DNA of 63,994 bases, filler included, from Streblomastix strix (taxonomy: Eukaryota): assembly GCA_008636045.1 (NCBI GenBank). It is 3 parts of 3 records of this genome, joined end to end, with 100 filler letters (N's around TTAATTAATTAA, not from the genome) between each part and the next. Parts side by side here need not be neighbours in the genome. Positions count along the whole stretch, not along the records: positions 1 to 21,852 come from SNRW01000349.1; 2 more parts are not named here. One strand, 5' to 3'. A program made the translations under genes and the position numbers. Below the pieces are notes generated by a model that was given only the letters and a program-made list of their open reading frames with translations, made no database searches and was not told the origin of the DNA. This document shows positions 281 through 53,361 of the stretch, piece by piece; position 1 is the first letter of the stretch, and every line of letters begins with the position of its first letter.

Positions 281-1050
281 TCGATCAACAACCGATCTTA
301 TCTGAATCATCTGAAGCAAATCCTGAAGCTCTTACATCAATGAATTCAATACAATCATTCTCATCAAGTCAAATATAATATAATGAATATTGAATTGAAT
401 GGATATGAAAGTACAAAAGCTCATTCAGAAAATCTTCAGAATATTCAACATCCACAAACAAATGTTGTTACTCTTCCTTTAAGCTAATCATTTGTCAATC
501 TTTTCAATAGAAACAAGATTAATCACAAACTGGCATTCATTCACTTCCTCCATTATCCAATGCAATATCAGATGAAAACACTTCTAATCAGTAAAATGGT
601 TCATTGAATACCAATTTTATTAATTCAAACACATCACCAAATTTCATTACTTCCTTCACTGAATGATATTTATTCTTCATTCTCTAATAATCATTCTGAA
701 AATCAAATAAATAACAATCTAATTTAATCTCAAATTCAACTGAAACAACAAAATCAATCACTTCAATTTCAAAATCAACTTCATTTATAACTTCCTTCTC
801 TTTGAACACAGTCATCTGCATCATCATAGAATTCTACATCAGCACAACCCACATCACTTCCTTCAATATTGTCTCGATCATTAAGTGATACAGATGATCT
901 ACTTGATTTTAAAGAATATGAATTGTATTTCTAATATTATATTGATGCATTATTCTAAAATGATTATAATAGAGGATTACTAAAAGAATGAAGATGAGAT
1001 TGATATTGAGAATTTAACTCAATTTGAATTACCGATATTAGTAGTATAGT

Positions 1051-1175
1051 ATGAAAAAGTTTGGGACATGTCTAAAATCATTCATTTTCAAATCAATCTG
1101 CACGCGCTAAACGCACAGTTGTAGCCCTTAGATTTGAAAATAAATGATTCTGAACTTATCCCATCAAATCTTCAT
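1051..1175. repeat. Imperfect hairpin at the left edge of the element
   Basis: aatcattcattttcaaatc (1076-1094) pairs with gatttgaaaataaatgatt (1131-1149) at 18/19; looser pairing extends to 1051/1175. Confidence 0.8.
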
Positions 1176-1204
1176 CCAAATTATCTAATAGACATATCAA
1201 AAAG

Positions 1205-1375
1205 CACTAATCCACAACACTAATATAATGAATGAATAAATATAATTAAAATGAACGATTTAAAACAATTTGCACACATTAATCCACAAGACTAGTGAAT
1301 AAGCGTTCATATATTCATTAATCCACAACACTTATGTGTATCATGAATAAATAAACACTAATCCACAGCGCTAAT
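1205..1375 (+). repeat. Four direct repeats CA(C/T)TAATCCACA
   Basis: TAATCCACA at 1208, 1280, 1319 and 1359. Confidence 0.8.
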
Positions 1376-1588
1376 CTATATGATTAATGGTGTTCATTAC
1401 TAAAGTATTTGCGGCGCGGTGAAAACACAATATTTATGTACGTTTACGGATACAGCAAATGGTTTTAGTAAATCTGGACAAGTAATTATACCGTTAATCC
1501 TTATGATTTTCCTGTGTTACTAAAACCAAAGGTTCTGGCAACTGAATTGCTATTTAATTAATAAAAATAAATTTAAGAGGGAATTATC

Positions 1589-1792
1589 TCACTAATTAGC
1601 ATTAGATTTTTTATTTTTAAAATAAGCTTCAGATATACGTATTATGTCACGTACATGGTCTAACATAAAATATAGATTTGAAGCATATTTTTTCTTTGCT
1701 TCGGTATCTTTAATTTCATTATTAAGTTGTTAGTATTCTTATTGTAATTTTGGTTCTAGCTCTTTAAAATACTCATACATTTATTTGTCCAT
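1589..1792 (-). CDS. Small viral hypothetical protein (67 aa, helical)
   Basis: Open ATG-to-TGA frame in TAR=Gln code: MDKQMYEYFKELEPKLQQEY...; upstream TATTATTTTTGTTCC motif. Confidence 0.65.
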
Positions 1793-1818
1793 TTTAAATA
1801 GGGAACAAAAATAATAAT

Positions 1819-2025
1819 TCAAATAAATTTTGCCAAAATAATTATCATATGTAAATTTACTATCATTTCAAATATTATGTCCAATTCATTTTTTATTGAT
1901 TAAGTAACAATACTATCTGTTTAATCATAAAATTAACGATTGTCCAATTATTCTTTCAATATGTAATAATCATTTGTCATGGCATCATAAATACTTTCAA
2001 TTGATCTGAGATGATATGGATTCAT
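1819..2025 (-). CDS. Small viral hypothetical protein (68 aa)
   Basis: MNPYHLRSIESIYDAMTNDYY...; same upstream motif as the neighbouring gene. Confidence 0.6.
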
Positions 2026-2054
2026 TTTTAGTATAGGAACAAAAATAATAGTGT

Positions 2055-2700
2055 CAATATAAATCAAAATTAATATCTTTGTACTATTCTTCATACTTTA
2101 CAGGTTCTTCTTAACATTCTTGAGTAGCTTAAATTTATTCAATTTCTTATTCTTTTCGTGCTTTTGATTCTTTGGATTCTTTTGGTTCTTTTGGCTACTT
2201 ATATTGTTTTACTTTTTATTTATATTTCTCTATTTGTTTAACAGCATCTTAATGTTATTATCTAATAAATGAATTTTCAGTTCTCAATCAAATTAATTCC
2301 TCCAAATCAAGTTGCGGATAAGTATAATTAATTTATGGAGTTTTTAATGTTTTTATTATTCTTTTTCTAACTTGTTTCTTTAATGGTTTTTCTCTAACTT
2401 CGCTTATGGAATTGTCATCACTTTCATTTTATTCCTCTTATGGCTCATAAGATATAAAATCTTCATCTTCATCAAGTTATTTTTAAGGTTGTTTTTAAAC
2501 ATTTTTCTTTGGAGCTACCCCTCCTCTAGCTTATAACAATAACTTATTCTACTATGTTTAAGTTAATTTTTTTTAAGTGTCTTCTTTCCTTCGTCGAACA
2601 CTTTAATATCTTTATTAATTTGGATTATTTATCCAATGACAAAGTATTCAATATTTGTTTCATTCTCTATCATATTCTTTAATGCATGTTGTATGTCCAT
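2055..2700 (-). pseudogene. Acidic/basic low-complexity viral protein, frameshifted
   Basis: MDIQHALKNMIENETNIEYF...; frameshift in a poly-T run near 2570; EPKESKESK-type repeats. End approximate. Confidence 0.5.
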
Positions 2701-2777
2701 TTGAATATTTTTAAATAAAGAAAATGATAAAGGGCATAGAAAGAAACTCAATTCACATGTCAAAAACCAAAAAATAA

Positions 2778-3490
2778 ATGTCAGAGATTAAGCATAAAGG
2801 GCTTACGGATGAAGATAAAATAGGATTGCAATTGATCGATGATGCAATTAGTCGAATCAAGACAATGACTCAGATAGGTCTCGAACGAAGTGAAACCATT
2901 GACGATACATTAAAACCAAAAGAAAATCCAATTTAGACTGAAAATGAAATTATTCAAGTAACACCTGAATAATTGATCCTAACAGAATAAAAAATTACTA
3001 AATATAAGAGCAAATACAATAAAGATAAATATAAACAAATTGATAGAACAACTGCATAAGTATATCCTGAGGAAATAGTTAAAAATACTTATCTTTCTCA
3101 CTCTAAATTGCAGGTAATGAAATTCATTATCGATTGCCTATGGAAGACGGTAACAACAAGAAAAATAGGTGATGATTTTATATTCTCATCAGATAACTTC
3201 ATTAAACTTTGGTCTTTAATCACTTAAGAGAATAAAGATGATATTGAAATTGTACTAGAGGAACCATTAATGAGATCTCGTTCATGCATAGGCAAATCAT
3301 ATAAAAAGAAAGATCAAATAAGAGTAATGGATATTTTGATCAAAAATGTATCTGTTAAAGTACTAGACAATGTTCTCTATAATTCTATTGAGAAACTATA
3401 TCGTGTGAATTGTGATTTTGTTCGTTTATCTAATGTATCTGAAGTAGAGATTTCCAAAAATGATTTTAGAAATAATTAATTTAGCTGTCT
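2778..3490 (+). CDS. Conserved viral hypothetical protein (similar to 52707-53334)
   Basis: Continuous frame from ATG 2778 through track ORF 3270-3479 when TAA/TAG = Gln. The native stop is unclear. Confidence 0.7.
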
Positions 3491-3529
3491 ATTTTTTTTA
3501 CCATTTATTTATTTTTACCAATAACCAAA

Positions 3530-3976
3530 ATGCTTTCACAATCAGAAATCGTTAAATGTGAAATAATTATGCATCCTCAAATTAAAATAGCAAAGGAAAT
3601 TAACGTTGAACCAATATATAAATGTGGTGATGATTTCTATTAACGAACAGTAAATTAATATAATAAACCACACTATAAATTATTGAAACGTTATGGTAAT
3701 AATCCGAGTTATCCATAATAAATTTATATATTGATTGAGAGAAGAAATAATTAGCATATTGATGGTACAATTAAATAGTATATTTAATTGATGAAATAAC
3801 TTAAAGATAACACATCTAACTATCCAATACGAAACTTAAGTGAAGATGATGCAGTCAAATATCGTGAACTAAGATAAGCAGTTGAATAAATGTAAGCTCA
3901 AACAAAATATAATTAATATAATTAATTTGGGATTAAAAGTCTAGTTAATAGTATGTATTATTATGTTAATGAATGA
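3530..3976 (+). CDS. Viral hypothetical protein (148 aa)
   Basis: Open ATG-to-TGA frame MLSQSEIVKCEIIMHPQ...KSLVNSMYYYVNE*. Confidence 0.7.
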
Positions 3977-3981
3977 TCGTT

Positions 3982-4005
3982 GAAACCTTTGGTTTGAGCT
4001 CTGCT
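3982..4005 (+). repeat. 24-bp hairpin element, copy 1 (intergenic)
   Basis: GAAACCTTTGGTTTGAGCTCTGCT; related copies at 13264, 15167, 18515 and 19490. Confidence 0.85.
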
Positions 4006-4057
4006 AATCGTTTATGCTCAGAGAATCATAGATTCAATGATTATTTTTGTAATAAAA

Positions 4058-5053
4058 ATGGAATAATAATTAAGCGATTTAGATATAATTGATGAAGACG
4101 AATAGATTAATTAATAAGAATAGGTAATTAAATTAATAAAATAATGAGAAGAGTAATAAAAATAAATTAAAGAACGTAATACATTATTATAAGATATTGA
4201 TAATGAGATTATTAAGTACTTTAATTATTTAAGTTAATTCTTTAAGAATTCTATCGATTTTGTTAATTTACATACTGACTAGATTATTCGTGGAGTAAAG
4301 ACATTTTTATCACCAATCACTGCTGGCAATTTTATTAAATAAGGTGGAACAAGTAACTAAATTCTATTGACTAATGGTGAAACATTAGATGTAGGTGATT
4401 TTTTACCAAAACAATATCCTCATGCGCCTGGGTAATTGATTATTGAAACGAGTTATAGTATATTAGATTAGGGTATAAGATTAATGAAAAATAATGCGAA
4501 TTGGGATAGTTTTGTACTCACTGGCTGCAACATTGACCCTGCAAATAGAGATTGGGTACGGAAAGTTGGTTAAACTTCATCATAATTTAGAATCTAAAAA
4601 TAAGAAGATTAAACTTATGATTATAAGGGTCTAATTATTGATTTTGATTGTACTACTTTAAAATTTAATAACTAATTTATTGCACCAATATCAGCAAAAT
4701 CAGGAATTTTTCATGTGGGGGATTATGTCGTTGGGTTAAGCTAATGGTCTTTAGTTTTGCATAGCAGCGGTTTCGTTTATATTAGCGCATATCTTCATTG
4801 GACGTCATAAGGTGGTTCGACTTGTATACCCGTCACGGTTGGATACGTTGATGCTGAATTTATCCCCCATTTTTCTGACCGTGTAGCCATGTAACATTTA
4901 ACAGCACGATCTTAACAAATTACTTAATATTTTGACTGTGTAATCAATTAGTATGTGTAAGTTTTTATTAATTCCAATTCTCTTTCAATATTACCTTCTC
5001 CATTAAATGTGGAAATTAATGGTACGTTTTTTATTAATTTTGGTGTAAGCTGA
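4058..5053 (+). CDS. Fibre / receptor-binding protein 1 (phage tail-fibre-like); one internal TGA at 4145
   Basis: N-terminal coiled coil, module FVNLHTDQIIRGVKTF...FIKQGGTSNQILLTNG, and a beta-rich C-terminal head ending INGTFFINFGVS*. Confidence 0.75.
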
Positions 5054-5076
5054 TGATAAATTCAAAAATAAACAAA

Positions 5077-5202
5077 ATGAATTCGAATAATGAAACCATC
5101 ATCTATTCTCTTGAATAATTGAACATTAACTGGCACGAAATCTTTAAAGCTATTTGGGAAGCAGCAATTAAATATGTCTGCGATTCAAAGATATGTAGAT
5201 GA
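5077..5202 (+). CDS. Very small hypothetical protein (41 aa)
   Basis: MNSNNETIIYSLEQLNINWHEIFKAIWEAAIKYVCDSKICR*, preceded by AAAATG context. Confidence 0.4.
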
Positions 5203-5255
5203 AAAATATATTCGAAGATTCTAGACTCGAAGAGTATAATTTTATTTTTGTAAAT

Positions 5256-7240
5256 TCACTAACGTTAAATAACTCCTTTAGCAACTTCTCCAATGACATC
5301 AACATTTAGTACTTAAGGCATTGAACAATCATCAAATATGTTTCTAACAAACGCATCACACAAGTAATGCATCATTGGAGTAATAGATGCTTTAGTTGGG
5401 TTAGTATATGCTCTAGTTCCAATGAATTATTTGAAACCATTTTAGTTCTATGATGGATTTATATTAGTTGTATCAATAATTCCTTTAGTCAAACTTCCTT
5501 GCAAAATAACTACTACATTAGTTCTAGAACCTAGGTTTGAAGAGTTATATCCCCGCATAAATGAATCATCAGTAGTTAGTTTTCATGCAAGCATAAATTT
5601 GTTAGGACAAAGTGTTCTAATAGCTTTATTTCCACTATACAATGTTGTTAAATAGAATATATTAACTGGTTTATAAAAATTTTCAGGATCTATCCATCTA
5701 TAGAAATGGCTCTTATCATCAATATTCAAGGTTTCAAATGTAAGTGAATGATATAGATCTGATGGAGCACTAACAACATCTTAATCAACGAGGCAGTCAA
5801 ACATTTATCCATTAATTGTTTAATTTACTGACTTATATGGTTGTGGGATAACATTATTCTAATCAATATCAAGGTTTAGTCCTGAGAATAATACAGGGAA
5901 AAAACCACATTGGATATTAGGGCATAGCAAATGTCATAAATAATGCCTTTATGTTAGTGAATGACATAATGCTTTACATTGATCCACTATTTTTATCAAA
6001 TCCACTAAATGGAAAGTTTGATGATTATGTTCAAAAAATTTAAGTAGGAAAGTTAATTATTTTTTTGTTATTGAATCAAACCAATTATAGCTTCTTTATT
6101 TTAAATATTGAAGCATACATTCTATATCTCCAATACATCGAATTTAGCTGTCCCAATCTAACTAATTGAATTTTGTAGTATCTTATCAACAATAGCCGCA
6201 TTTTATATATATACAATTTTTACATTATATCTTTAATACGATAGACCATTAGCATTATATCCTGATAATAGATAAACAGTATCAGGTTTCTCAGGAGGAA
6301 TCATGTGATAAGCTAAATGATTATTTTAAATAGTATCATTTTTATTAAGCCAAATAACCTTCAAGTCTTATAAGAAATTTTATATCCATAATTGTAGATA
6401 TAATGTTGCATAATTACGAATAAGCACAGGGAATGAATTGAATATAAGATTTAGTTGGTTAAGATCAAGTACTCCACTAAATGTAATATCATTAGGAATT
6501 CTGTAATAAAATGGTGTTCCAACGGTGGCAGCAGCTGCATATCTATCTATTTCACAAAGTGGAATATCTATAAATACTCCACAATGACGTTTTCGTTCAA
6601 TTATACTTTCTAATTGAGATACGCTATCGCTATTTTTAGTGCGCAAATCACTAAGAGAATTTCCACTAATAACTGCTTATTCTCTTGCATAGATTGCAGA
6701 TCCCCATAGTGCTGTTGCATCATTCAATAGTTAGAATTAGTAGAATGGTCCACACGCAGTTGAGAAACCAATCCAAAATTATAGATGTTCTGATGATTCA
6801 ACCCCTTAAGCTGTTTTATCAAAATATCCTTATGACGCTTATGTCATATTGTCAGTCCAATCAGCTAACGGATTTTCTTTACCATTGAAATTAGTTCGTG
6901 CAATTAATTTTCCTGTAGTATTACAGTCTAAATATGTTTTATTTAATTATTTCGCTAATGTATTTGCTGGTATAGTAATTGTCCAATTTACCTTACAAGT
7001 TTATACCATTGAACATGCTGATTTTCCTCTTGCTCCTAATGGTGCTCTAGTATATTTAACTCCACTTGATGTTTGTTCAGTTATTGGAGAATGGAAAAAA
7101 TTTTGCTTTGATATTTCAAATGATTGTGAATGTATAGATAAAGTTTTTAGAACTTCTCCAAGTAACATATATCCACTAACATAACCAGGTTGTGCTATTT
7201 TTGCTAATTTTTCAAGATAATCACTGCATTTGAAAGACAT
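5256..7240 (-). pseudogene. Major capsid protein (double jelly-roll, metamonad Polinton type), several frameshifts
   Basis: ~660 codons, beta-rich. FWIGFSTACGPF...REQAVISGNSL...HCGVFIDIP...DLNQLNLIFNSFPVL resembles metamonad Maverick MCPs as I recall them. Size and genomic context fit. Confidence 0.75.
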
Positions 7241-7303
7241 TTCAATAAAACAAAAATTAATGAACTGAAGTCAAAGACTAAGCTTCGTTAATAGATGTTC
7301 ATG
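7241..7303 (-). promoter_or_regulatory. Upstream element shared by the MCP and penton genes
   Basis: The 21 nt before the ATG are 19/21 identical to those of the penton gene (18035-18055). A triloop hairpin and AGAT(G/C)TTCATG follow. Confidence 0.6.
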
Positions 7304-7327
7304 TTAAAAGTTTTCATAATAAATCAA

Positions 7328-7534
7328 ATGGGTGTCTTCTCTGGAATAACAAATTTTGGGTCGAAAATATTAGAAGGCGTTAAGAAAGCAGCATAATGGG
7401 TTGCATCAGCATTGCATAAAGTTTTGTCAACAATATCAGGTCCTGTTGGAATGATTCACCCTGGAATTGGAGGCGCATTAGGTGCAAGAGCTAATCTTGC
7501 AGGTGCTGTTGATCGTTTTGTAAATAAACGCTGA
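7328..7534 (+). CDS. 68-aa amphipathic protein resembling the adenovirus protein VI lytic helix; possible N-myristoylation
   Basis: MGVFSGITNFGSKILEGVKKAAQWVASALHKVLSTISGPVGMIHPGIGGALGARANLAGAVDRFVNKR*; intact frame. Confidence 0.75.
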
Positions 7535-7559
7535 TAAAGACCAATTTATTTTTATTAAA

Positions 7560-9782
7560 ATGAACAACACATTGTCTTAATAGTAAATCCGAACAGTTAG
7601 ATAACTTATCACTAACGATATAGCTTACTACATTCAATATTAAAAACGAGGTAATTCTAGTGGAGGAATGATGTCAAATGAAGAGTATCAATTATTCATA
7701 GATAATAACAATGCTTTAGTCTATGCTGCTAACAATTAAATCGTTGATGGAATTGCATCAGATTATGCATTAAAGATAGAACCTAATGGATTATTAACGA
7801 TAAAGAATTTGAAAGTGATTAATTTTGATTTTGTCGCTTAGATTAATTAGTTGATTAATTAAGTGAATTTACTATAACTATCAATTGGGACAACTGAATA
7901 GGATATCACTGACACAAAAAAATGATATTGATACCATTAATCAAGAACTATCAAGATAAACACATTTTCGAGGATATTATTTATTGAATACTGATATATA
8001 AAATTTACCTAAATCCGCTAATGGTGATTTTTCATTTAGTGCTGAAAGTAGGACAGTTCGGTTGTATGATTAAAATTGGTATAATAGCGGAGATATAGTT
8101 CCAGATCAAGTAACGCCTGCAAGTGATGAAACTTCATTATCTGATGGTACAGCAACTGCAGGAATTAGCACTGAATATTCACATGAAGATCAAGTAAATC
8201 CATTAAATATAACAATTACTATTCCACCTATTGATTCTGCTAGTGGATTTGTTGGTTCAACTAACTGTTATGCAAGAAACGATCATTCTCATCCTCTCAA
8301 TATAACAACTTCATTATCTCCGCAAGATTGTGCAAGTAAATCAGTTGGTACAGCTAATTATTATGCTAGATCCGATCATTCTCATCCAATTAACGTAGAA
8401 ACTAATGCTTCAAATATTACAATCGGTGATGGTGTTGGTGCTGATGGAACATCAGCTTTTTACGCTAGACAAGATCACGTTCGTCCATAGCAATTAACTT
8501 ATGATGAAAATGTTACTGCAACTAAATTTATTAAAACTGGTTGAACAAGTAACGATATATTGTTAGCAAATGGTGATACAAAAGTTATATCAGATATAGT
8601 GGGTGATCATTTACTGTAATAGACCCAGAATAATATGTTAAATTATGTACGTTTATAGCTTTAAATACTAGTCCAGATAATTCAATTGAATTCAAAGTAG
8701 CTACTAGAAGTGGATTTGGATAAATATAATTCAACTAACATTGGAATAATGGTATAGGTATAAATAACTATTAGTATAAATTTACTCCCTCATTAGCTTC
8801 TGGTTTTAATAGTGCATGGATCTTATATTTTGAAACAGGTTTAACTAGATATGGTGAATTATGGTGTCTATTAGATAGTTATTCTTCTAATAAAGTTATA
8901 TATTAAACTGATATAAGTGCTTTTTAGGGTAATATTACTGATATATTAACTACTAATTCATAATCAGCTTTACCTACAGACTATTCTATTTTAAATTAAT
9001 TATTTCCAAATTCATATGGTAGTATGTAAGTTAATCCAACTACTAATCAATTTAGTTAAGGAATAAGAATGTCATATTCTACCAATACTAATTATAGAGG
9101 AATATTTCTTGGTTATGATCCACTATCAACTACAGGATCATTACAAGATTAGAGGAACACAGTAAATACACCTGTTGGTTAATTTGTGATAGGAGTTAAT
9201 GATTAAATTACTGAGACAAATTAAGGATTAATGATATCAGCTGATGGAAACACATTAACTTTCAATAATAATTAATTCGTTGATTTAAACATTGATTAAA
9301 CAATTACTGGTAGAAAAACATTCGGAAAATTAAAATAAGTAATTCCATCAAATACTGGAGCATTTAACGAAGGGATAAAAATTAGTAGGCACCCGACCAA
9401 CTAATGGAGTAATATATAATTTGGCAGTGATCCAAATACAAATACTGGATGTATTGATAATTAATGGTTGATCGGAACATCAGGAAATGATGCGTAAAAT
9501 CCACTTGGCTTTATAATCGTTAAAGCAGGATAAGAAGGTTAGGCTAATAGAGGATTACAGATCAGTGCTGATGGAAATTCATTATCTTTCAATGGATAAG
9601 TTATTGTATGAAATGGTGCAAATAACGGTGCCACAGATGGGTCAGTTAATTATTCTGCAAGCAATACAATCCTATGGGGTGCAAATAGTCTTGGAACAGA
9701 TGGTGATTTCTATACCAATGGAACTACTGTATTCTGGAGAGCACATGCATTACAATTTGATCCGCACTACTAAGGATGTTGA
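7560..9782 (+). pseudogene. Long fibre protein 2 with YARxDHxHP repeats; two internal TGA (8542, 9609) and one frameshift (~8610)
   Basis: Four repeats (YSHEDQVNP, YARNDHSHP, YARSDHSHP, YARQDHVRP), a DQTITGRKTF module and two GL.ISADGN.L.FN modules. Confidence 0.8.
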
Positions 9783-9831
9783 GGATTTTTAATTCGCCAA
9801 TTCATACTTGGATAATTTATTTTTGAAATAA

Positions 9832-10230
9832 ATGGAAAAAGCTGTAACACAACCGATAAAAAAATTGTTTAATGAATTAGTTAAATAACACTTTTATGAA
9901 AACAATACTGTTAAAGTTACAATTGAAGCATTTTAAAATTTGTTAAAGAATGATATAAAAGAATCAATTCATCCATTACTCTAAAAATTAATGAGAATAA
10001 ATAAAATGTTCAAATAATCAGCAGCAGTAATTATAAAAATATAAAGAAAATGGTTGATGGAGAAGAATATGAAAATAAGTTATTTAATGAATAGTGTATA
10101 TACTTCAAAAATAAATACCTATTAATAAAAAGCCATTAGATATAAATAATTATCCATAACAAATAAAGAAGTACATTATCTCGGAAGCTAGTGAGGAAGA
10201 AAAATAGATTTACAATTAATTTGTGAATGA
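9832..10230 (+). pseudogene. Viral hypothetical protein, frameshifted
   Basis: MEKAVTQPIKKLFNELVKQHFYENNTVKV...; TTATTTTTG upstream motif. End approximate. Confidence 0.45.
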
Positions 10231-10250
10231 TGAGTAATACAGTAACTTTG

Positions 10251-10559
10251 TCAATTACTATTCTCTTCAGAAGGCATCTCTTAGTGGGGAATAATTTAAT
10301 CTAAAATAATTTGAATTTTAACCTGTTATATATATTCGATTATATCTTTAATTTTATCTTACAATGGATCGAGAGTACAAAAGTGAAAATGTTACAACCT
10401 CATATTATATCTACTTTTATCAGTTTGATTTAACTCAACCATAAATTTCCATGGAATTACTGTATTAGTGTTAAGAGCTTAAAATATTTTGAATTTCTCA
10501 TAATCAGATGCATCATACTTATCACCAATTGTTTTTGCTAAACTATACATCTCGTACAT
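10251..10559 (-). CDS. Viral hypothetical protein (102 aa)
   Basis: Open frame MYEMYSLAKTIGDKYDASDYEKF...EENSN*. Confidence 0.6.
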
Positions 10560-10570
10560 TTTATTATTTT

Positions 10571-10936
10571 TCAAAAAATTTTTTTATTTGGTTAATTTAA
10601 CATTTTAAGATACAAGATGTATCTCCAATGAGTTGCCAATTCCAAATCTTTATTAGATATTGCTTCATTCAAAAATGCTTCAATTAATTCTATAGATAGC
10701 TATGACCAATGTATGCGAGGTTAATTTTTATCCATTTTTTTGTAAAAGAATTGTATAATGTAAATAGTTATATTTAATGGGACCAATACTATATCGAAAT
10801 AACTCCATAATGTTTTAATTACATTAACTGTATCCATTAATTTATCAGGAATTGACATAGATATAATTGATGTTATAAAATTAACTCCATAGAACATGTA
10901 ATTCATTATTCCCATGATTATCGACAGTATGTTCAT
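10571..10936 (-). CDS. Putative membrane protein (121 aa)
   Basis: Track ORF 10721-10936 extends through TAA to TGA at 10571; two hydrophobic segments. Confidence 0.65.
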
Positions 10937-10952
10937 TTTATTATTTTTGAAA

Positions 10953-11973
10953 ATGACATTATAAGAATTATAAGATATAACGTTTACTAATCAAGATCTA
11001 TTGAACGAATATAAAACTAAGCCATTAACGAAGAATTCTTTGTTTCATGTTAATGACAATCATTATATTATTGGAGCTGTTGGAAGTGGTAAAACAACAT
11101 TAATGTGTAAGATAGTTGTGATATATAAGAAAATTATTGATCTATTTATATTGTACTTCTTGAATTACGGAGCAGATGAAACTATGGCATTAAACCTAAA
11201 CAGTAAGAACATTTAACTAATGAATGTAACTTATGGAGAAGCAATGATATTTCTACCTGAATTTTATAAGATAAAATACTCAACTAAGGAGATGTACATT
11301 TAGTACAAAAAGAATGAATAAAAATAATCTTATACTAGCGATTTCACTAGGCGAATGGAAGAATAAATTTTATAAGCTAATGAGATTAAAAAGAATGAAA
11401 AACTTAATGATTATCTTAATAGAATTGCTGAAATATTCAAATAAAAAGTAATCGGAACCATTAATAAATATAGTTAACCTACCAAGATATTGTGATTCGA
11501 TATCCCTGCACTAATTCAAAATGTTAGTTACTAAATGAAATTCAAAATTACGAAAGACGAATAAAATGCTGACTTAAAAAATAATTAAAATACCTATATT
11601 AGAATAAGCTTAATTACTCCATACATTAATGCTCTTCGATGATATTGGATCTAATGCAGATATCTAACGATTCAATTCTTAATTATCTAAAACAATAACA
11701 TGTCTCGTTAGTGATTCCCGTCATTCAAAAAATACTATTTTCTTTATCGCTTAACGTCCAACTTATTTGTTTAAAACAACGAGGATATTAACCCATGTAA
11801 TTTGCTTAGGCGTAAATCTTGGTTAAAGTGACCTAAGCTAAGTGTACAATGAAAATATTATATAAAATTTGGATTTTGATGGGTTCCAATTACTATACAA
11901 TACATTTAAGAAATATGAGTTTATCATACTGAATAAGTGGTTAAGGAAATTTGAGATTCTCAAAAATAAATGA
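10953..11973 (+). pseudogene. A32-like (FtsK-HerA) genome-packaging ATPase; one TGA (11493) and one frameshift
   Basis: Walker A IIGAVGSGKTT, Walker B LMLFDD, and the A32 signature SRHSKNTIFFIAQRPTYLFKTTR. Confidence 0.9.
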
Positions 11974-11999
11974 AAAATCAAGCTATTGAGTCATCGGAA

Positions 12000-14900
12000 A
12001 TGGCATTTTTGGTAAAAAAGTAATCCTTAGCAGTTAATCCATACATAAATAGACAGCATGATTGATTCTCTAATACTATAATTTTTGTATGAATTTCAGT
12101 GATTCCGTTTTTCTCAATTGATAATTAACTCATCTAATGATTCTTCTATCCCAATCTCATATTAGTGCATTTAGTTATCTTACCTTCATCAATGCAATCA
12201 GCAATCTAGTCTTTAATGATCTTATTAGTCTTTTAATTAACTCCTTTCAATTTTATTTTTGAACCATCGCAATAATTCTTGAAAATGATATAATTTTTAG
12301 GAGCTAATGCAATCGTTGATGGACCTTGTCGTTCTATTGCTAATCCAAGGATTTTCTTCTCATCATAAACGTCTTGTCTAATCGAAGGGATGAAATACTT
12401 AGCATTTTCATAATAAAATTCTCGATCATTAATTACAGCATTAAATTACTAAGTAAAATGTTCATTATGATTTCTACTAATTGCCCAATAAGCTGAATCA
12501 ATATCTCCTTCAATAAAATGTATCCTATTCATATCAAAGCATTTGCACATGAAGTTATATATGAAGTTTAGATACCAATATTTAGCATTATCTAATACAA
12601 AGAACGCCACTTATGAAGGAGTATTACAATTGCAATGCTCAGCATTCATTTATACAATATAGTTGTCTTCAGATATCTTTTGTTCGTCCATGAACGCATT
12701 AGATCTAATTGCTCTTTCTGTTTACTTCTTATTCATCATTTTAAATTTATGATATTTCTCTGTATTCATTCTATCAATACCATATGAGCTATTCGTAACT
12801 ATCTAAAAGAACTATCCTTTTCCTTTATTTTCATCTAATTTTGCAATAATTTTGTTTTTGTAAATTTTTTAATAAATGAATTGAATTAATCATGTTTATT
12901 GAACAGAATTGTCTATTTCATATCATCTATAATAAAATGACAATCAACAATTAAGAACCATAAATAATATGAATTAAATGCCATATATTCTCCCGCCGTT
13001 GATGATAGATTAGTCAACTTTCTTTATTTTTGATCAGTCCATATCTTAATATCTTTCATATGATTGAACATATAATATCCAATAGTTCTTTAATCAGTTG
13101 TGAATTCATAATTCTTTAGAATAGGGTAGAAGTTAATATAATAATTAAGGTAATTCTCATCAATGTGACGTTTAACTTCAGCAATGAATAATTAACCATC
13201 TTCTGTAAATCTCTTTTTGCTATTAATCATTCTTAATATAGTTTATTTTGAATGTTCAGTGTTAGCAGAGCTCAAACCTTCGGTTTCTCCAATAATCTTA
13301 CCTGTTTATGATCCACACATATACATTTTGCCTCCAGTATATTTTATAAATTTATGGGGATCAGATGACATAACACTAGGATATAAGGAATTAAAATCAA
13401 TTCCAACCACATGAGTTATTCTGTGATCAGTTATTAAAACTGCGACTTTCTTATTTTCTTTATCATACCATAATTATTTTATAAAATCAACTCCTGATAC
13501 ATTAACTCGATGCATTACATTTGATAATCCTCCTGTTATCCCCGATCTGATAAAATGATATACATCAATATATATTAAATTAGTTGGCAAACATCTTATC
13601 ATACAATATTTACGTAATTGTATGAATAATTATCCTATATTTTTGTCTTTATCCGAACAGAAGCAATTGCAATTTAAACAACAAGGTTGAACATTATCTT
13701 TTGAATGACCTTTTGAATTATCTATTCTGTCTAGAGTTGGTTTATTAGAAATTGTGAATTTACATCCACAAATGCTGCAATTGGAATCTTTGAATAATTA
13801 TTTGAAATATTCGAAATCACTATCTTATACATTATTTGTTGTGTATCTTTTTTTATGTTTATCTTACGATAGATATCCATTCACTTTACTTTACCAATAG
13901 TACTCTGTTAAATAAAATTTTTATGATTAATCTTCAAAATTAGGATATAATCCATTAATATTAAAATCCTTATAGGCTTTAGCATATTTGATAGCATTAG
14001 AGCATGCAGCCATACTCATAAAACTAAACATATCAATCTTATATTTAAATTGTAAGCTAATTAGAGTCATTAATGGCTTAACCATTATATATGTATCTTA
14101 TTCATTAAAGTATTGTAGATAATCCCATCTATTTTTAAATCGCTTTGCATCTTCTAGACAAATTTAATAATCCTTTTAACTAATTTTTGTCCTCTTTAAT
14201 GATGAATTGAAATATTCCATCGTAAACGGTTCTGATTTACTTAATACTTCATTAACGTTCTCGGTATTGAAAGATTCATAAGGAAATATCCCTTTCTTAT
14301 CATCGTAACCATCTCCAAAATCTTTTGCTGCTTACCTTAATTCCATAGGTTAAAGATATGTTAACATGTCAACAAATTTCACTTTCAAATTCAATTTTTT
14401 AAGATGTACTATAATTAACTTAGCTGTTGATGGGCTACCAGTATAATTAGTGATTGTCCAATCTTTACATTACATATATTATATAATTAATGACATATCA
14501 AATCTTGAGCTATTGAATCCTACTATTAGTACTTCAATTGAATAAGGAATTGTTTCATCAATGGTGCAGGCTTCTGTTATATATTAGTTGTCAGCATTAA
14601 CTTACTCAGCTTCTTTAAACAATTAATTTAGCCATTTCACTATAAAATCATCTCCATCCTATTAGTTAAAGAAGATTTTCTTAATCCCTTATTTGTTACG
14701 AATAGCTGCTGCAACTGATAAAGGAAAGTAGTTCATACATTTAATAACTTGATTTACCGAACTTTTTATTAACGCTTTTAGGAATTATTTCAAAATCATA
14801 TGTGATGATGTATTGCGTTGGTTTAAACTCATGTCATTTTCTATTTGCTTATAGATATTGATAAGTTTTATTCTACATAATGTGTGGAACAAATGGCTTT

Positions 14901-16530
14901 TAGATATAATCAAGTTTAACTTTCTTAACTATTTTTCCTTCGTTATTTTCACATTTAATAGTGAGTTTCTCATAGTCTCTTGAGCAATTTTTATCTTAAG
15001 GATTGAATGCTTTTGAGTTACAATGTGGGCAAAATTTCAATCCAGTTAATGCTTGTTTATTGGCTGTGGCAAATGCATGTGATATCTTATTCCCTTCATA
15101 AATAAATTCAACAACTAATATATCGATAGTCTTAATCTCTTAAAGTAAGATTGTTTTGTTTTCTTGAGCAGAGTTCAGACCTTCGGCATCTAACATTTCA
15201 TCTTTATATACTACTTTCATTCCTCTACAATAATTCTTATGTTCATTATCGTAATAGTAAATGTCTTAGTTAATTTTTAACTTTAATGATACTATATTAG
15301 CCTATTTAGTTATATCTAATCCATCAAATGTCTTTAATAAATCAGTCATTTTCTACTCTTTGAATCGAATAGTAGCTCTAATACTTAAATTAATGGTTGC
15401 TTGCTAATGCTAATAATTTCATTAGTACAATAATGTTTCTCCTTTGAATCAGGATGTAATGCTTTTGTTATTGCTTCCATATAGCAATTATTATTATTTC
15501 TTGTATTTTTATAAATAACATTTTTGCGACAATTACAATGAAAATCGATTAATTCTTTAATATTAGCTCCAAAAATTTATGGTTAAAAATTAAATGTTTT
15601 AATCATCATCGAATAGATAGCTATGTATCGTTACCTTATACTATCTAATGTATAATTCTGCATATTTACTATTGCAGATTGAATGTATTATTCATACTCA
15701 TCAATATCATCTTCAGATTATATAACTTTAGGAGCATGTTCTTGAATACGAGTATCTCTAGGTAATATATATCCTTAATCAACGTAAACTTAATCATTCT
15801 ATTCATATTTATATTCTTCGTAAATGACTCTAAAATTTAATTGAATCTTGAATGATTAATGATGTTATTCTTTATAAACTTTTTCAATAAACTACTCAAT
15901 ATTTGTTACTGATCTTATAATATTTTAGTAATGCAATTGGCTTAATTATCCATTTGGTTCTTCTTATTCTACTGTATGTTCACGATCAAATCCTTATCTT
16001 GCAGTATAAACTGTTGCCATAAATTATTCCATATTCTCAGGAAGAAAATATAAAAGAGTACCTGCGTCATTATCTATTTCTTTAGTGTCTTTTCCACTAA
16101 ACTAATTAATTCTATCTTTAATCTCTTTATTTTGCTTGGCAGTTATTTAGTATTGAAGATTCACCTCTTATTCTTCTTCCATTATTCTTCTAGCTTATTC
16201 TTACTCTTCTATGATATAATTAGTCCAGAAATCATTAGCTTATTATCACTCTTATTCTCTACGATATTCATATAAATCCTATTCATATTAATTCTATTTG
16301 AAATGTTAAACCAGATCTTTAGATTTGATAATTTACTGATTGTATTTATAAACTTATTTTAGATGAGTTTTCAAATCCTTGTTGTTATTTCTTCCTCTCT
16401 TCTTATAATTAATTTTGTCTAAATATTCATTGAGTTAATCTTTAAGTTAGTTTACCTTTAATGTATCATTAATGTTTTTGTTGTTGATTTTGAGTAGTTT
16501 AATTAGCTCATCTTTCTTTATGTATGATAT
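12000..16530 (-). pseudogene. polB: Protein-primed family B DNA polymerase: TP-like region, vOTU-like domain, Zn finger, exonuclease, HNH insert, polymerase; frameshifted
   Basis: TYDFE (Exo I), GFNSSRFD (Exo II, ~14510), KGIFPYE, DFNSLYPS (~13390), NSSYG (~12787), GDIDS (~12500; canonical DTD). The start codon appears mutated; ends approximate. Confidence 0.95.
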
Positions 16531-16565
16531 TTTGCTTAAAATAAAAAATAATTTATTTGGACATA

Positions 16566-18034
16566 TCAATAAAATTATATCTCGAGAAGTAAATTATTAT
16601 ACATATCCATATATTGCATTGGTATCTTTCTTCCAAAATTATCGTATAATGTAAAAACTAACGATTTGTTCTATCTCACAAGGCATTATTGACTCATCAT
16701 ATTCTATCCCCATAATACTGGTGCATCAACCAAATTCTATTTGAAACATAGGTTCGAGAATCCATTACCTCCAGTTTATTATAGAGTTATTCATAATAAT
16801 TAATTAGATACGCAAATTATAAGCATTCATGGATACTCTAGAAAATTCCCGATATATGGACAGAATATTGGAAGATCAACATCTAAGCTTTCATTATCAT
16901 GTTTAGTTTAATAGAACCACACTTCGAGATCAATTTATTTAATAGCTGCTGACAAATTAACTAAACAATTGGCTCCATTTACGTTCTATCCATCATATAG
17001 ATCTTATCCACCAACTAATTGTACGTATAGATTTGGAGATAAAAGTATATGATTAGAAAACCAATAAACATTATTTTACTAACAATATTCAGTTACAACT
17101 TATGGAATGAGTTTTCCATAGTAATTTGTTCTTCCAACAGCAGTATAAATATTTTACCATTCAACAGTACTAAATGCTGGTAATGAATTGATAATTCTTA
17201 CTTGAAATGTGCAATATAATTGATAATTTATTACATTGTTAATTGTTATTCATTAATTGGTTAAGAGTCAGATGTAGTAACTGTTCCATTAGCATTTATA
17301 TCAACTTACTTACCAAAAAGATATCTTATTGATAATCTATTACCTTATGTAAAATGTTTAGGTTCAATTGATGTTATGTAGTTATTTGATGTTGGAGAAT
17401 ATAATCGTATTAATTCAATCATTCGATATAGCTCATTAACTGTAGTATCTAAAATCCAATAATGATAGAGAAATGCATCAATTCTAAGGTTAATAGAATT
17501 GATTGCTGAATTCACTAAATCTTATCCATAATTCTAGTTTAATGAGAACATATTATTTTATAATTTTTATACATACTCGTTAATTGCATTATTAAAGCAT
17601 ATTGCTCCACTATTCAAAGTTGATTAAGTCCTAAAATTTTTCTCAATTGTATCTGTAAAATTATCATATTATGTCAGTGTTAGGAATAGTAATTATGGAG
17701 TATATTTATATCTTTATATTGTTTGATCACTATTATAAGCATTATTAATTGCTGTATTCAAACTGATACGTAATGGTGGTAATCTATCCAGCAATTAGCA
17801 ATGAAACTGATCCTCTCCAACTTACTATTAGAAATAAATTTTCCTTGAATCAGTTGATACTGTATTATGCTATATTTCTATGTAATCATTGTTCAAATAA
17901 GATGTCAAATAAATTAGAATGTTATTGATACTATTAACTTAAAAGCTTTAACTGCCTCTAGGGATAGTCGTTTACTATGTTACGAAATCCTTATCTGAAT
18001 GAGAGTTGATAATTTGAAAGCCGATGTTAGTCAT
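16566..18034 (-). pseudogene. Minor capsid (penton) protein, frameshifted
   Basis: N-terminus ...SFQVNSINNI...NDYIEI and C-terminus LVFTLYDNFGRKIPM...LLLEIQFY* fit the penton single jelly-roll pattern (L.D..G..I). Confidence 0.7.
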
Positions 18035-18094
18035 TTCATTAAAACAAAAATAAATCCAAAGGAATCCGAGCAAAGCTTGGCGGATCGAAGATCT

Positions 18095-18319
18095 TCATGC
18101 TCTTTCATTTAAATATTATATCAATTTCATTATTGCAGATTGACTATTCTCAGATGCTATTCATACAATATCTTTTAACTGTTCCATTTTAAGACGTTTA
18201 TTGTATTATCTTAATATAAATCTCAATTCTATCTCGGGATCATTCTTAGTTGCTCGTGATATAACTTAACTTAAAAACGCTGAGTAAGTCATAAATTCAT
18301 CACAATTTATTTTTGTCAT
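18095..18319 (-). CDS. Small viral hypothetical protein with one internal TGA
   Basis: MTKINCDEFMTYSAFLSQVISRATKNDPEIELRFILRQY... Confidence 0.5.
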
Positions 18320-18478
18320 ACTTTTAATCTAGAAAAATAATTTCATTTCAACAAAATAATTATTAACAAAATGCTTGAAATGATAATCATAATGTCCCAA
18401 CATATTGGCTTACATTTAATAGGTTATTATTTTGTTTCCATTTGTTTATTACTAAAATACTAATTATCTATAATTAAA

Positions 18479-19554
18479 ATGTCAAAACGTGAAACTTAAA
18501 AAGGTAAATTAGTTGAGACCGTAGGTCTGAGCTCCGCTAAAACAAAACGACCCAAAGGACAACCTAAGAATAAATCAACTGCAAATAATGTAAACGAATA
18601 TTTGAAATTAAAGAAACCTTTCACACATTTAGGGCAAACTGTTAATCCCTTAAATATAGCAAAAGTTCCATAAATTTTATTGAATTTAGGAAAATATGAG
18701 TAAACATAAGGTAGAATGAAATAATCTGATTATTCAGCTTTATTAAGATAGGTACATCAAATAGATAATAGTGTTTCAGCTTATGAAGCTGATGTTGGAA
18801 TTCAAGGATTAAAAGGCACTGTTAGAAGAGAAAGAATATATGGATCTTTTGACCCAACAGGATTAGTTGCTGATGCTATTTAAACATAATAATTGGTGTA
18901 GAAAATTTTGGCACCATAATAATTATAATCATTATAAGAAGCCAATTTCAATCATAATTTAAACATCAATGATCGATTAGATTAACCATCATAACGAGGA
19001 CCAAGTAATATTGGACCATCAGCCCCTGATCATAGTATAGATGAAAGTGATGATGAAAGAATGGAATTATTTGGAGGATATAATCGTTACTAAATATAAC
19101 CATAATAAGATTTAAATCCTTACTCTCAAAATACAGATTAATAAATTGATTTTGCTTCATAAATTGATGCAACATAGGAAGATATCGAAGATGAAAAGGA
19201 GGAGGTTTAAGAAGAATAAGAGCATGAAGAAGATATTGTCCAAACAAATAGAGAATTATAATATGTAAGAGGATTAAATTGGGGATAAGAACCAGTGAAT
19301 CCTCACTATAATAAAAGACCATTTGCATAAATAATCGATTTTAGCTATAGAGAAATCGATTAATGATTATCAATATATGCAAAAAAATAACATATGACGG
19401 AGGAGGAATTAGTAAACTAACCAAAAAAGTAGAAAAAATATATATCAAATAAAGAATTGAAGAGTACATTAAAAACATAATAAAAACTTAGCGGAGATCA
19501 AACCAAAGGTTTCAAAAAATAAATTAGACGATAATCACACAAGAAATGAAATGA
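18479..19554 (+). pseudogene. Viral hypothetical protein with basic N-terminus (possible core protein), frameshifted
   Basis: MSKRETQKGKLV[ETVGLSSA]KTKRPKGQPK...; contains two copies of the 24-bp element. End approximate. Confidence 0.55.
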
Positions 19555-19806
19555 TCAGAGATTGGGATCTTCAATTATTTGAGAAATTTATTCTAAAATA
19601 TCATCTGATATTATTGTTTTATTAAATATATACATTATTCTCGATTACTAAATAGAGAGTTATTCTTTAAATTATTTTTACTTTAAACGTTACCTCTTCT
19701 TAGCTTCACCACGTTATTTCTTAGCCATTTCTTACGCTTCCTATTCAGTAAAATATTTCTTTGTTCTTCCAACTTTTTAAGTTTGTTTTAAGTTTTCTGT
19801 GTCCAT
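19555..19806 (-). CDS. Small basic putative DNA-binding protein (83 aa)
   Basis: MDTENLKQTQKVGRTKKYFTEQEAQEMAKKQRGEAKKRQR...: a GRxKKY motif followed by a basic helix. Confidence 0.65.
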
Positions 19807-19826
19807 TTATTTATCTAGAAAAAATA

Positions 19827-20990
19827 TCAAACTAATTTGAAAATTTACTTATATTTATCTTTTAATGTTTCAATATTGTTTGCAACCTTATGAATATAAT
19901 AAATTGGTACTTCAACAATCTTAATATCATTATATGGTTTCAACAGTTCACAAAGAACATTTCCATGCTCATTTTTTATAAAAGTTGCTATTTCATTAAA
20001 TTATCTTCGTTATTTCTCAAATCCGTGTGCTGTCTTTTTCAAATCAAGATGAATAGTTATTATATTACCTTTCTTTAGATCCTATAGATTATCCTTATAC
20101 TGTAATTCCTTTGCATCAGCTAATTCCTTAATTTTTTATCTAATAAATATTCCTTCTAAATCTTCATTATCATTTACTTATTTAGGAGAGAATTTCTTTT
20201 TAAATGCTGCGTGTATTGTGTTATTTAAATCATAAACAACTTATTATAATTTTTTATTATTTGCCAATAGTTAAGAATCATTTTCAAACGCATTCCTTAT
20301 CGTTCTAACTACCGAATCAGCTACTCTATTTTTATTAACGAAAGGAGATGAATTATAGAAATAATTTATGTCATTTTCTTTTAAATAATCCTTAATTTAT
20401 TTACTTCCCAAAGCTGATTCACCATCTGATCTAATGTTACTAACAAGTTAATTAGATTTTAATTATTTAATATACTTCAATAATTCATTTGCTGATTTAT
20501 CTTTAATTGAATAAACTTCTAAATGTTTAGTTTTAATATTAATACAAAATAGAAATTATTGAATTACTTTATTAATTGTTGGGTGCATTATAAATATAAT
20601 ATCAATTTCCAAGCATCATAATTCTGGAGAGAAGTATGGACGTTAATACTTCTTTAATAGTTTCAATTTAATGTCTTGTACTATATCAAATTTATCTTTA
20701 ACTTTACTTCTAAATGGATTCTTAATTCTTTATGGTTCTTTTTAAACATTTGTTTTTTAAGGCTTTACGTTTGATTTTATTCGTTCAGCATGATACTTTT
20801 AAAAATTATCAAGAAAAATCTTATACCACTAAGAAATAGTTTTATCTTCGAACTATTCCTCCAAATTATTGATGTTGAATTACTTTTTAAATACAAAATT
20901 CATATTCATAATGAAATCCGCTAATTTAAATTTATCAACTTTGAACGCTTTATCATCTATAAATTATATAATTTATTTTTAAACAGCTGA
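19827..20990 (-). pseudogene. Retroviral-like (RVE) integrase; internal TGA at 20616 and a frameshift
   Basis: RPYFSP...EIDI (D ~20602), FLFCINI.TKHLEVYSIKDKS, IRSDGE (D ~20425), NRVADSVVRTIRN (D ~20317). Start approximate. Confidence 0.9.
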
Positions 20991-21511
20991 ACGATAAAAA
21001 TAAAGGGAGAGGAATTTTGCGGTGATTGTGAGTTTATCTGACAAATTAGTTCATGTTATTTTACGTCTAAGAGTTGCTGCTATATTTCGGATACAAATCT
21101 AAATTTCATACCACATTCTATACACAAGATATGCACCAAATAAATAAAGATCGTTCTACACCTTTACATTCTATTTATTTTTCTATTTTTATTGTCGTAT
21201 TTGTTGTATACATACAAATATAGTACAATTTTATTTATATTCGCATACATTAATACTATTTTCGCTAAAGAAAAATATGCCAATCAGTAATTACCGCGTC
21301 ACTCACACCAGACAATTTTTTGACCATTTCCTATTGTTTACAATTATATATAAGATGCTCAAGTGCACTTTTTTATCACGGTATTTTTAGATTATTTCTT
21401 TTCGCTGGCACTATGCTTCACGAAATTCGCTTTGTTTAAAAAAATATTATTTTCATACACATTTGGATTAACACTTATATTTCTTTATTTTTTAATTCAG
21501 AAACAATTTTT

Positions 21512-21852: not shown

Positions 21853-21952
21853 NNNNNNNNNNNNNNNNNNNNNNNNNNNNNNNNNNNNNNNNNNNNTTAA
21901 TTAATTAANNNNNNNNNNNNNNNNNNNNNNNNNNNNNNNNNNNNNNNNNNNN
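21853..21952. other. Artificial contig spacer
   Basis: N-run with a central TTAATTAATTAA, 100 nt. Confidence 0.97.
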
Positions 21953-32269: not shown

Positions 32270-32930
32270 AAATAATAATATATAAAATTAAGTAACAAAG
32301 ACAATATTAGACAAACACATTTACTTGGAACATTCGTTTCAGAAAAATAACTCTCAGATAATTTGTATGCTGTCTAATTATAGCCTTACAATTGCTCTTG
32401 CATGACTCCATTATAAGTTGCTTATTTTACTTTAGACAGTGCAAAGTATTATTATTTAAATACATATTACAATTTTATTACTCCAAGCTTAGATATGAAT
32501 AGATTTCATTATATCTACGGAGATACAGATAGTTTGTGCTTTGCTGTTGCTGGTTATGAAGCTGCAGGAATACATTAAGGATTAGAAAATGTAATAAGTG
32601 ATTAATAATTATATTATGAAACATACTATTGGTTTCATCCAAGAAACCATGATGATGTATATGAAGGGAAAAAAATAAATGGATAAACAGTCTAAAGTGA
32701 AGGATCTGCTTGTATAGCATTAGCAGCGAAGTGTTATTATACAAATACCAAATCATCAATTATTAAATTAAAGGAAGTAAATTTGAAGTAAAATTAAAAT
32801 ATTAATTTTCAAAAAGCATTTCAGAACAATACTAATAGCAATACTGTAACAACTGTGGAACACACTTCTTTAATACAAAAGCATGTATTATATCTCGAAT
32901 AACGTAAAATAAAATAGAAATCTATAGATA
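32270..32930 (+). pseudogene. polB: C-terminal fragment of a second protein-primed PolB
   Basis: TPLQVAYFTLDSAKYYYLNTYYNF...RFHYIYGDTDSLCFAVAG. Heavily decayed upstream remnant to ~31790. Confidence 0.88.
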
Positions 32931-35900: not shown

Positions 35901-36052
35901 ATTATAAGTTATAACTTGGTTTAGTTTAAGATTATGAATCAATGAAAGATGAAGAGAATAAAATCAATGGTGATGACGATGATGAAGAAGAAGATTATAC
36001 AAATCTAAAAATAATATCAAATAATTAAGATGGTGATATAATTAATCAATGA
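32964..36052 (+). pseudogene. AEP prim-pol / superfamily-3 helicase fusion (D5-like)
   Basis: AVVDIDFD (~33570), VRTSHGGIYIYC (His replaced), Walker A GVQGTGKNT (~35200), LIILNE, IFISNN, DRRY. A few stops and frameshifts. Confidence 0.88.
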
Positions 36053-43792: not shown

Positions 43793-43892
43793 NNNNNNNN
43801 NNNNNNNNNNNNNNNNNNNNNNNNNNNNNNNNNNNNTTAATTAATTAANNNNNNNNNNNNNNNNNNNNNNNNNNNNNNNNNNNNNNNNNNNN
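43793..43892. other. Artificial contig spacer
   Basis: N-run with a central TTAATTAATTAA, 100 nt. Confidence 0.97.
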
Positions 43893-47880: not shown

Positions 47881-48204
47881 GTTTTGATTTTTATGCATTT
47901 AAAGCCAAATTGGTAAAAAAAATGTAAAATTTAAATTAACATTTTTTTATAAATAGATCAGATTTATTTATAAAAAAAATAATATTTGGCATTATATTAT
48001 ATGTGTAACATTTAAATATAATATATCATATAATTCCTATCTTGTGTCTAGAAAACCTACGCGCAAGGACTTATTCTCCCCCCTGCATTACGTCTTCAGT
48101 ACATCGTGCATGATTTTTACAATAATTTATGGGTAAAATGAGTGAAAAATAATTAATAAAAATGATTTTTCTCAAACTATTTCAATATTTTATCTTTCAG
48201 GAAA

Positions 48205-53334: not shown

Positions 53335-53361
53335 AGGTTCTATATTATGTTTGATAATTAA

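Follow-up and report, generated by a model that had tools for sequence, protein, structure and literature searches.

The first contig of a 63,994-nucleotide stretch of DNA from the termite-gut protist Streblomastix strix (the whole stretch is hereafter the window, and this contig is its positions 1–21,852) carries a dense run of virus-like genes, which raises the question of what kind of element lies here and by which route its virus would have entered an anaerobic protist. We conclude, with a probability of about 95%, that the locus is a decayed Polinton-type endogenous viral element. It is integrated between host genes, and its family is present in high copy and has a capsid protein that was modelled with a double jelly-roll fold.

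The element, at positions 1035 to about 21,100, comprises 19–20 tightly packed genes that are seen only with genetic code 6, in agreement with an earlier note on this DNA that had counted about 20. The standard code was rejected as the reading-frame table because it yielded just 8 open reading frames (ORFs) of at least 60 amino acids (aa) in positions 1–26,000. Code 6, the code of the host, gave long frames, and TAA/TAG exceeded CAA/CAG in all five of the long viral ORFs tested. Because host protein-kinase exons (labelled from their motifs) flank the element on both sides, it is integrated. Most of its large genes carry stops or frameshifts, as had also been claimed, and this copy is decayed. 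The N-padded joins at 21853–21952 and 43793–43892 separate three unrelated contigs, and the element is unlinked to anything past 21,852.

The S. strix genome contains hundreds of copies of the element family. Public contigs at 80% identity or more covered all 30 bins of positions 1500–21,400, mostly at 80–95% identity, with 26,457, 1,969 and 4,407 contigs on the element in the sets X1, X2 and X3, respectively. X1 and X2 derive from the same sample and X3 from another study; because X1 may be the source sample, X3 is the sole independent set.

These sibling contigs place a real left terminus at the family boundary 1035–1040 (feature 1035–1060, +), where siblings diverge and from which short AGT repeats run (from 1040). 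Six contigs in X1 and four in X2 depart into unlike flanks before 1035, with agreement of 0.54 and 0.58, respectively, and one departure lies at 1040; depth in X3 is 0 before 1034, and some X1 and X2 depth is present at 850–1033. Short subterminal direct repeats follow at 1200–1375 (+; family D18, 38 nt, 79%), with more partial copies visible. The earlier description of the element as near-complete holds at this end but not at the other, where no terminus was found. An inverted-repeat search between the two ends of the element detected no right-end partner of the left terminus on the contig and gave chance AT-rich matches only, which agrees with the earlier report of no evident terminal inverted repeats (TIRs). 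The integrase frame extends to about 21,050 with no clear start, and the simplest reading is that the right end, which looks truncated, has been lost. Damage to this copy is the best reading of the absent TIR pair, which is not a demonstrated family trait; the TIRs and target-site duplication of a canonical Maverick-Polinton were not found in this copy. The inverted repeat I20 (3980/19515) was rejected as an internal TIR because its two arms belong to a dispersed motif with five copies, described below.

The gene for the major capsid protein (MCP) lies at 5256–7240 (−), has its own S. strix gene model (P0005), and carries two frameshifts and two stops relative to sibling P0012. A search with the ORF at 7240–5999 returned 271 homologues, and all 120 of those listed were from S. 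strix. Many of the sibling gene models are fragments; in one sibling cluster, full-length MCPs of 652 aa make up 5 of the 15 members listed. A profile search extended the family to 214 proteins, and among the 150 listed we chose ten long distant homologues from metagenomes and assemblies, which were added to give a 46-row alignment. From this alignment the homologue P0145, which is 27% identical to the MCP ORF of the window over 396 aa (E 1e-41), was modelled with a predicted local distance difference test (pLDDT) score of 72 and a predicted template modelling (pTM) score of 0.79. Its best Foldseek matches in the PDB were the capsids of Emiliania huxleyi virus EhV-201, Paramecium bursaria chlorella virus PBCV-1, mavirus, an iridovirus and Sputnik (E 4e-11 to 7e-9). 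Its top 14 VIA rows consisted entirely of capsid or scaffold proteins with a double jelly-roll, including PBCV-1 (Z 15.3, root-mean-square deviation 3.7, 333 aligned residues), faustovirus (14.8), a poxvirus scaffold (13.9) and African swine fever virus (13.8), and its top BFVD rows were virophage MCPs (E 1.6e-12 to 2.8e-11). On this model the MCP family has the double jelly-roll fold expected of Maverick-Polintons and Polinton-like viruses (PLVs); the earlier note had named the lack of a jelly-roll as a sign that it was mistaken, and this lack was not seen. Adenovirus hexon ranked 16th in VIA (Z 7.0), under 14 other double jelly-roll proteins, and 49th in BFVD; the modelled fold is nearer to the capsids of nucleocytoplasmic large DNA viruses (NCLDVs) and virophages than to hexon, and the model does not point to the hexon-type capsid with towers of the Adenoviridae.

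In a 20-row MCP tree, which holds only this family, has no outside references and contains long branches that were flagged, the 12 S. strix rows were monophyletic (100/100), with a long branch leading to them. DUF4106, the MCP family of T. vaginalis, gave no Pfam match at E ≤ 0.1 in ten members of the MCP family. Three of the ten distant MCP clusters lie on contigs of 20.0–21.8 kb, the size of a unit genome, and intact relatives that are about 30% identical (P0200, P0269, P0204 and P0216) lie on metagenome contigs of 20,640, 20,007, 20,667 and 21,847 bp, respectively. Pattern searches of viral and metagenome contigs found no related loci; these searches reach close relatives and suffer from poor code-6 back-translation, which leaves room for free genomes.

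Two genes of the element are fibre-like. The first (7560–9770, +; two frameshifts and two stops) encodes a coiled coil, His-x-His repeats, a swappable middle domain and repeated distal modules, and the second (4046–5053, +; one stop near 4145) a coiled N-terminus, shaft repeats and a beta-rich C-terminal head. The two share shaft modules (E 2e-5), so that the two fibre genes of the earlier note stand as a fibre-like pair. Fibre 1 had 260 homologues; the 120 listed were all from S. strix, two of them auto-named 'Tail fiber protein', and 115 carry at least two His-x-His repeats. The middle domain of these 120 siblings falls into three classes (42, 27 and 5 members), with 46 in none. Over 144 aa, fibre 2 is 63% identical to sibling P0375, which carries a different head. 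Judged from these alignments, the fibre domains are mosaic and swappable among siblings, and the architecture makes the identification as fibres likely. Their description as phage-like was not upheld: tblastn found no match in 50,697 phage records, just one of 18 fibre siblings had a PHROG tail match, which was weak (E 0.0014), and the Atlas fibre families scored 0.78–0.79, which is the level of a lead. At least 16 listed MCP and fibre-1 records share a same-size contig with locus tags within 2 (assessed by eye), including those of MCPs that are 51–53% identical, and the capsid-peptide-fibre block recurs in many siblings. Gene order varies, with the ATPase adjoining fibre 1 in P0352 and P0389.

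The peptide of this block (7328–7534, +) is intact and 68 aa long, with an amphipathic cationic helix at residues ~2–36 followed by a Gly-rich hydrophobic segment. Its hydrophobic moment has a maximum of 0.60 per 18 residues and is sustained at 0.51 over 33 residues. Of 3,192 control windows taken from ten further ORFs of the element, 13 attained 0.60, as did 0.08% of 5,000 shuffles (p 0.0008). The peptide occurs in 40 of the 391 fetched proteins at 73–92% identity, and in 38 of these cases the gene models fuse it to fibre 1. We predict from its sequence that it is membrane-lytic. The earlier note had called it pVI-like, which holds for the intact amphipathic peptide but not for homology to adenovirus pVI: no PDB match was found at E ≤ 10 with the single sequence or a profile and no Pfam match at E ≤ 1, in searches that have low power for so short a peptide. 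The N-terminus of the peptide may resemble the pVI helix. The peptide's helix begins at residue 2, whereas pVI is a precursor, and therefore no processing cut would be needed, which would fit the absence of a detectable maturation protease. Adenovirus pVI is described as a 250-aa precursor that is cut by adenain and is lytic via an N-terminal amphipathic helix (PMC4113798).

The remaining recognisable genes serve the capsid, replication, integration and packaging. The probable minor capsid (penton) protein gene (16569–18034, −; one frameshift and two stops) has a sibling, P0124, that is 82–90% identical and that scored in Atlas 0.96 against a Parabasalia-virus cluster, 0.95 against a nematode-rich cluster and 0.95 against a Sputnik minor-capsid cluster (44% V18/19); the assignment to the penton family is supported by the feature score of 0.95 against virophage minor capsids. 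The putative protein-primed DNA polymerase (pPolB; ~11978–16540, −) is in five pieces, was assigned from motifs, and is 65% identical to sibling P0121. Exonuclease and polymerase motifs are visible in it, and we take the polymerase and viral OTU (vOTU) motifs, read from the sequence, to be what they resemble. An endonuclease VII/HNH domain (~13,660–13,980, −; PHROG E 8.8e-14) lies between the exonuclease and polymerase motifs. It was the sole informative match when fibres, peptide, pPolB, integrase and the region of the terminal protein (TP) and vOTU were scanned against Pfam, PHROG and the PDB; pPolB and the integrase had no PDB match. The integrase is inferred to be of the RVE type (19827–21050, −; one stop at ~20,617, N-terminus possibly cut) from motifs that we presume to be DDE-like. 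The packaging ATPase (10944–11973, +; one stop and one frameshift) has Walker A and B motifs and is probably of the A32/FtsK type; its library matches were generic P-loop matches (E 0.007–0.04), and sibling P0389 is 54–68% identical. In the putative TP-vOTU region, pPolB and P0121 have a Cys motif in common where a vOTU domain is expected from the layout given in PMC11161782.

One alternative is a canonical-type Polinton whose maturation protease has either diverged beyond detection or disappeared from this copy together with its right end; we consider this account unlikely. We searched 438 code-6 frames of at least 25 aa for His-Trp and Gln-x-Cys-Gly, which we take to be adenain motifs, and no unassigned gene had the pair. 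Of the two unassigned ORFs of more than 200 aa, one has no Cys in common with a sibling and the other lacks Cys entirely; the remaining ones are at most 150 aa or of low complexity, and no protease-like piece was noticed by eye among the unmatched ends of sibling models. In favour of a canonical Polinton, the library negatives are weak (the same Pfam scan at E ≤ 1 misses even pPolB, RVE and A32), the right terminus was not found, and sibling gene order varies (P0352, P0389), so that gene content may vary too. As far as can be seen at the motif level, within searches that are weak here and with the right end missing, an adenain-like protease is absent from this copy. The earlier claim of no adenain thus stands for motif-level candidates in this copy but not beyond the reach of these insensitive library searches and the missing right end; the earlier note had held that intact siblings with adenain would speak against it, and none was seen among the sibling genes, which were gene models and not whole elements.

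It is distinctly unlikely that the intact virus parasitised a giant virus of the gut in the manner of a virophage, its fibres binding the helper virion and its peptide being structural. The top BFVD rows are virophage MCPs and the penton scores with Sputnik V18/19, many PLVs are reported to possibly need a giant virus (PMC10120064), and Egoviruses have been linked to Parabasalia and their polintons (10.1101/2024.03.23.586382). However, no helper of an oxymonad is known, and the main text of the latter report mentions neither Streblomastix nor Preaxostyla nor termites; virophages are described as carrying a protease (PMC3671162), and NCLDV, virophage and adintovirus capsids come out almost level in the fold rankings. 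That the family is now only a self-synthesising intragenomic transposon with a decaying relic of a virion module is improbable. This copy has disrupted genes for the MCP, the penton and the two fibres, and many sibling models are fragmentary, but one close-knit sibling cluster includes full-length MCPs, the structural block persists even where MCPs are just 51–53% identical, fibre domains are exchanged, and intact homologues lie on metagenome contigs of 20–22 kb. Specific kinship with adenoviruses, with homologous fibre, penton and peptide, is very improbable despite the same functional trio and the possible likeness of the peptide to the pVI helix, given the hexon ranking far below PBCV-1, the lack of any Pfam or PDB match to pVI or adenovirus fibre, and a predicted integrase together with a TP apparently fused to pPolB, unlike in adenoviruses.

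Several points weigh against a virion-forming Polinton-type virus with the entry apparatus described here. Neither a virion nor a transcript was seen, nor a sibling element that is whole and intact. The capsid fold depends on the 27%-identical homologue P0145, and an attempt to model a close-sibling MCP with 34 close sequences did not succeed (pLDDT 39, best Z 4.3, no fold match). The penton was identified from Atlas feature scores and has no structure model; pPolB, integrase and ATPase had no curated-family match at threshold in Pfam; the fibres had, apart from a coiled coil, no homologue in phages or the PDB; and the peptide, which had no known homologue, could be a scaffold or cement protein.

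With these points counted, we still hold that the decayed Polinton-type element descends from viruses of the following kind, and we regard the whole mechanism, entry included, as somewhat better than an even bet. Intact forms would likely replicate by the protein-primed polymerase and integrate by the RVE integrase, and the vOTU domain, by analogy with PMC11161782, may free the terminal protein. The ATPase would package the linear genome into predicted double jelly-roll virions. The two modular fibres would sit on the penton and bind hosts, with swappable distal domains setting receptor choice, and the packaged peptide may breach the membrane by lysis. The earlier proposal of a virion-forming lineage in an anaerobic protist is kept to the extent that an integrated, decayed Polinton-type virus with a double jelly-roll capsid, a penton, fibre-like proteins and an amphipathic peptide is consistent with it. 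Calling the entry apparatus adenovirus-like was overstated, as the modelled capsid is closer to those of NCLDVs and virophages and no homology to pVI or adenovirus fibre was detected. A bolder reading is tentative, and we would not favour it at present: the S. strix element could be the integrated face of an unplaced class-level gut double jelly-roll lineage with free genomes of 20–22 kb, which dispensed with a protease through a propeptide-free lytic helix, changed receptors by fibre-domain swaps and independently assembled adenovirus-like entry in anaerobic protists.

Other ORFs of the element are without a family assignment. Positions 1589–2700 (−) hold two or three small frameshifted ORFs, charged or coiled-coil, without a family match. 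They are followed by a conserved ORF of about 240 aa with no shared Cys (2757–3479, +; 50% to sibling model P0352 over 226 aa) and an intact ORF of 148 aa with no significant match in library scans (3530–3976, +). A helical ORF of about 120 aa (9832–10194, +; a code-6 frame) precedes one of 102 aa without a library match (10251–10559, −) and the membrane protein of the earlier note (10571–10936, −), which has two stretches of moderate hydrophobicity (Kyte-Doolittle 19-residue maxima 1.37 and 1.66) and is a possible small membrane protein. Upstream of the penton is a small conserved ORF with one stop (18100–18415, −; 73% to sibling P0121). An intact ORF without Cys, with a basic N-terminus and an acidic C-terminus (18479–19366, +; 34% to sibling P0123), and two small basic ORFs on opposite strands (19394–19806; code-6 frames) complete the set. 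A dispersed DNA motif of 17–28 bp has five copies between 3980 and 19515 (3991+, 13278−, 15181−, 18524+ and 19504−), all inside the element, where 0.01 were expected; two copies are in frame within pPolB and one within the ORF at 18,479. Either a very small mobile insertion or a regulatory sequence could account for it. A loose end of a similar kind is found in sibling contigs at 10,738.

Other possibly mobile sequences occur elsewhere in the window. A second C-terminal pPolB fragment lies at 32290–32740 (44% to the pPolB of the element; tblastx E 1e-26), and two broken ORF sets with P-loop motifs, which we take to be D5-type primase-helicases, lie at 33503–36052 and 48166–50568 and suggest a second kind of endogenous element. 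On the third contig, the stretch at 51021–58356, between copies of a 50-nt inverted repeat (90%), includes a gene with a Fic domain (E 7.9e-5) as well as fibre-like ORFs rich in repeats, with a PHROG match to a tail fibre (E 1.9e-4), and is probably another mobile element. Two long inverted-repeat structures of about 0.8–0.9 kb (27680–28611 and 59223–60050) resemble miniature inverted-repeat transposable elements.

Among known systems, the element has in common with Maverick-Polintons (Polintoviricetes, pPolB2 type; 10.1101/2023.08.22.554363) a length of about 20 kb, an MCP and a putative set of pPolB, RVE integrase, ATPase and minor capsid protein (mCP), but differs in having no detected adenain or TIR pair in this copy and an MCP that is about 650 aa long and ungrouped in a 2026 preprint (10.64898/2026.06.19.733378). 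An HNH domain in pPolB2 was presented by Jeong et al. as a synapomorphy of oomycete and nematode Polintons, and phage-like fibres together with an HNH-bearing pPolB2 were reported for the oomycete ones (10.1101/2023.08.22.554363). The S. strix element likewise has an HNH-type insert and fibre-like genes, and its HNH-bearing pPolB would be a third lineage with a trait called unique to those two. With PLVs (Aquintoviricetes and allies), for which the lack of a protease is described as the norm (PMC4642659), it has in common the minimal module of MCP, putative mCP and putative ATPase and no detected protease, but it has a putative pPolB and RVE integrase, both of which most PLVs lack, and an anaerobic gut host. 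From its sequence, the element would thus be Polinton-like in replication and integration and PLV-like in lacking a detectable protease. Even in Polintons a protease was counted in 74% and missing in 26% (PMC4028283), and fibre, 'VI' and cupiennin genes have been annotated in adintoviruses and MELD viruses (PMC8502044; 10.1101/341131). The earlier note had overstated how unusual the element is, as protease absence, fibres and VI-like genes all have such precedents. The likeness to adintoviruses and MELD viruses is one of annotation, in phage-like fibres and small membrane-active genes (cupiennin-like, 'VI'); adintoviruses are animal-associated and were discovered via adenain, unlike this element. 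With adenovirus entry the element has in common a predicted division of tasks, in which the fibre binds, the penton anchors and an amphipathic helix lyses, but it differs in having no detectable homology, a 68-aa peptide with an N-terminal helix instead of a 250-aa pVI precursor (PMC4113798), a putative integrase, and a modelled capsid fold that is not hexon-like. Its combination of two modular fibre-like proteins, a short predicted lytic peptide and no detected protease is apparently undescribed so far.

The closest known system is the Metamonada group of Bellas et al. 2023 (PMC10120064), in which S. strix MCPs were placed with code 6 noted and 820 MCP genes listed, and into which the present MCP falls by host species, code 6, a divergent double jelly-roll MCP and high copy number. 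The S. strix elements and their capsid family were thus already known and catalogued. That work catalogues MCPs, and no S. strix gene map was found in the text available; nor did we find a gene-level description of these elements elsewhere in the literature, although subscription journals, figures and bioRxiv supplements may hold one. A 2026 preprint (10.64898/2026.06.19.733378) describes metamonad elements as still ungrouped, so that metamonad Polintons and PLVs are a group that recent classifications fail to place, and the entry route of protist Polintons is an open question to which this element speaks. To the catalogued family the element adds a gene map with annotation, a deepened MCP family whose capsid fold was modelled with confidence, fibre domains that appear swappable, a conserved amphipathic peptide without a propeptide, and metagenomic relatives of unit length.

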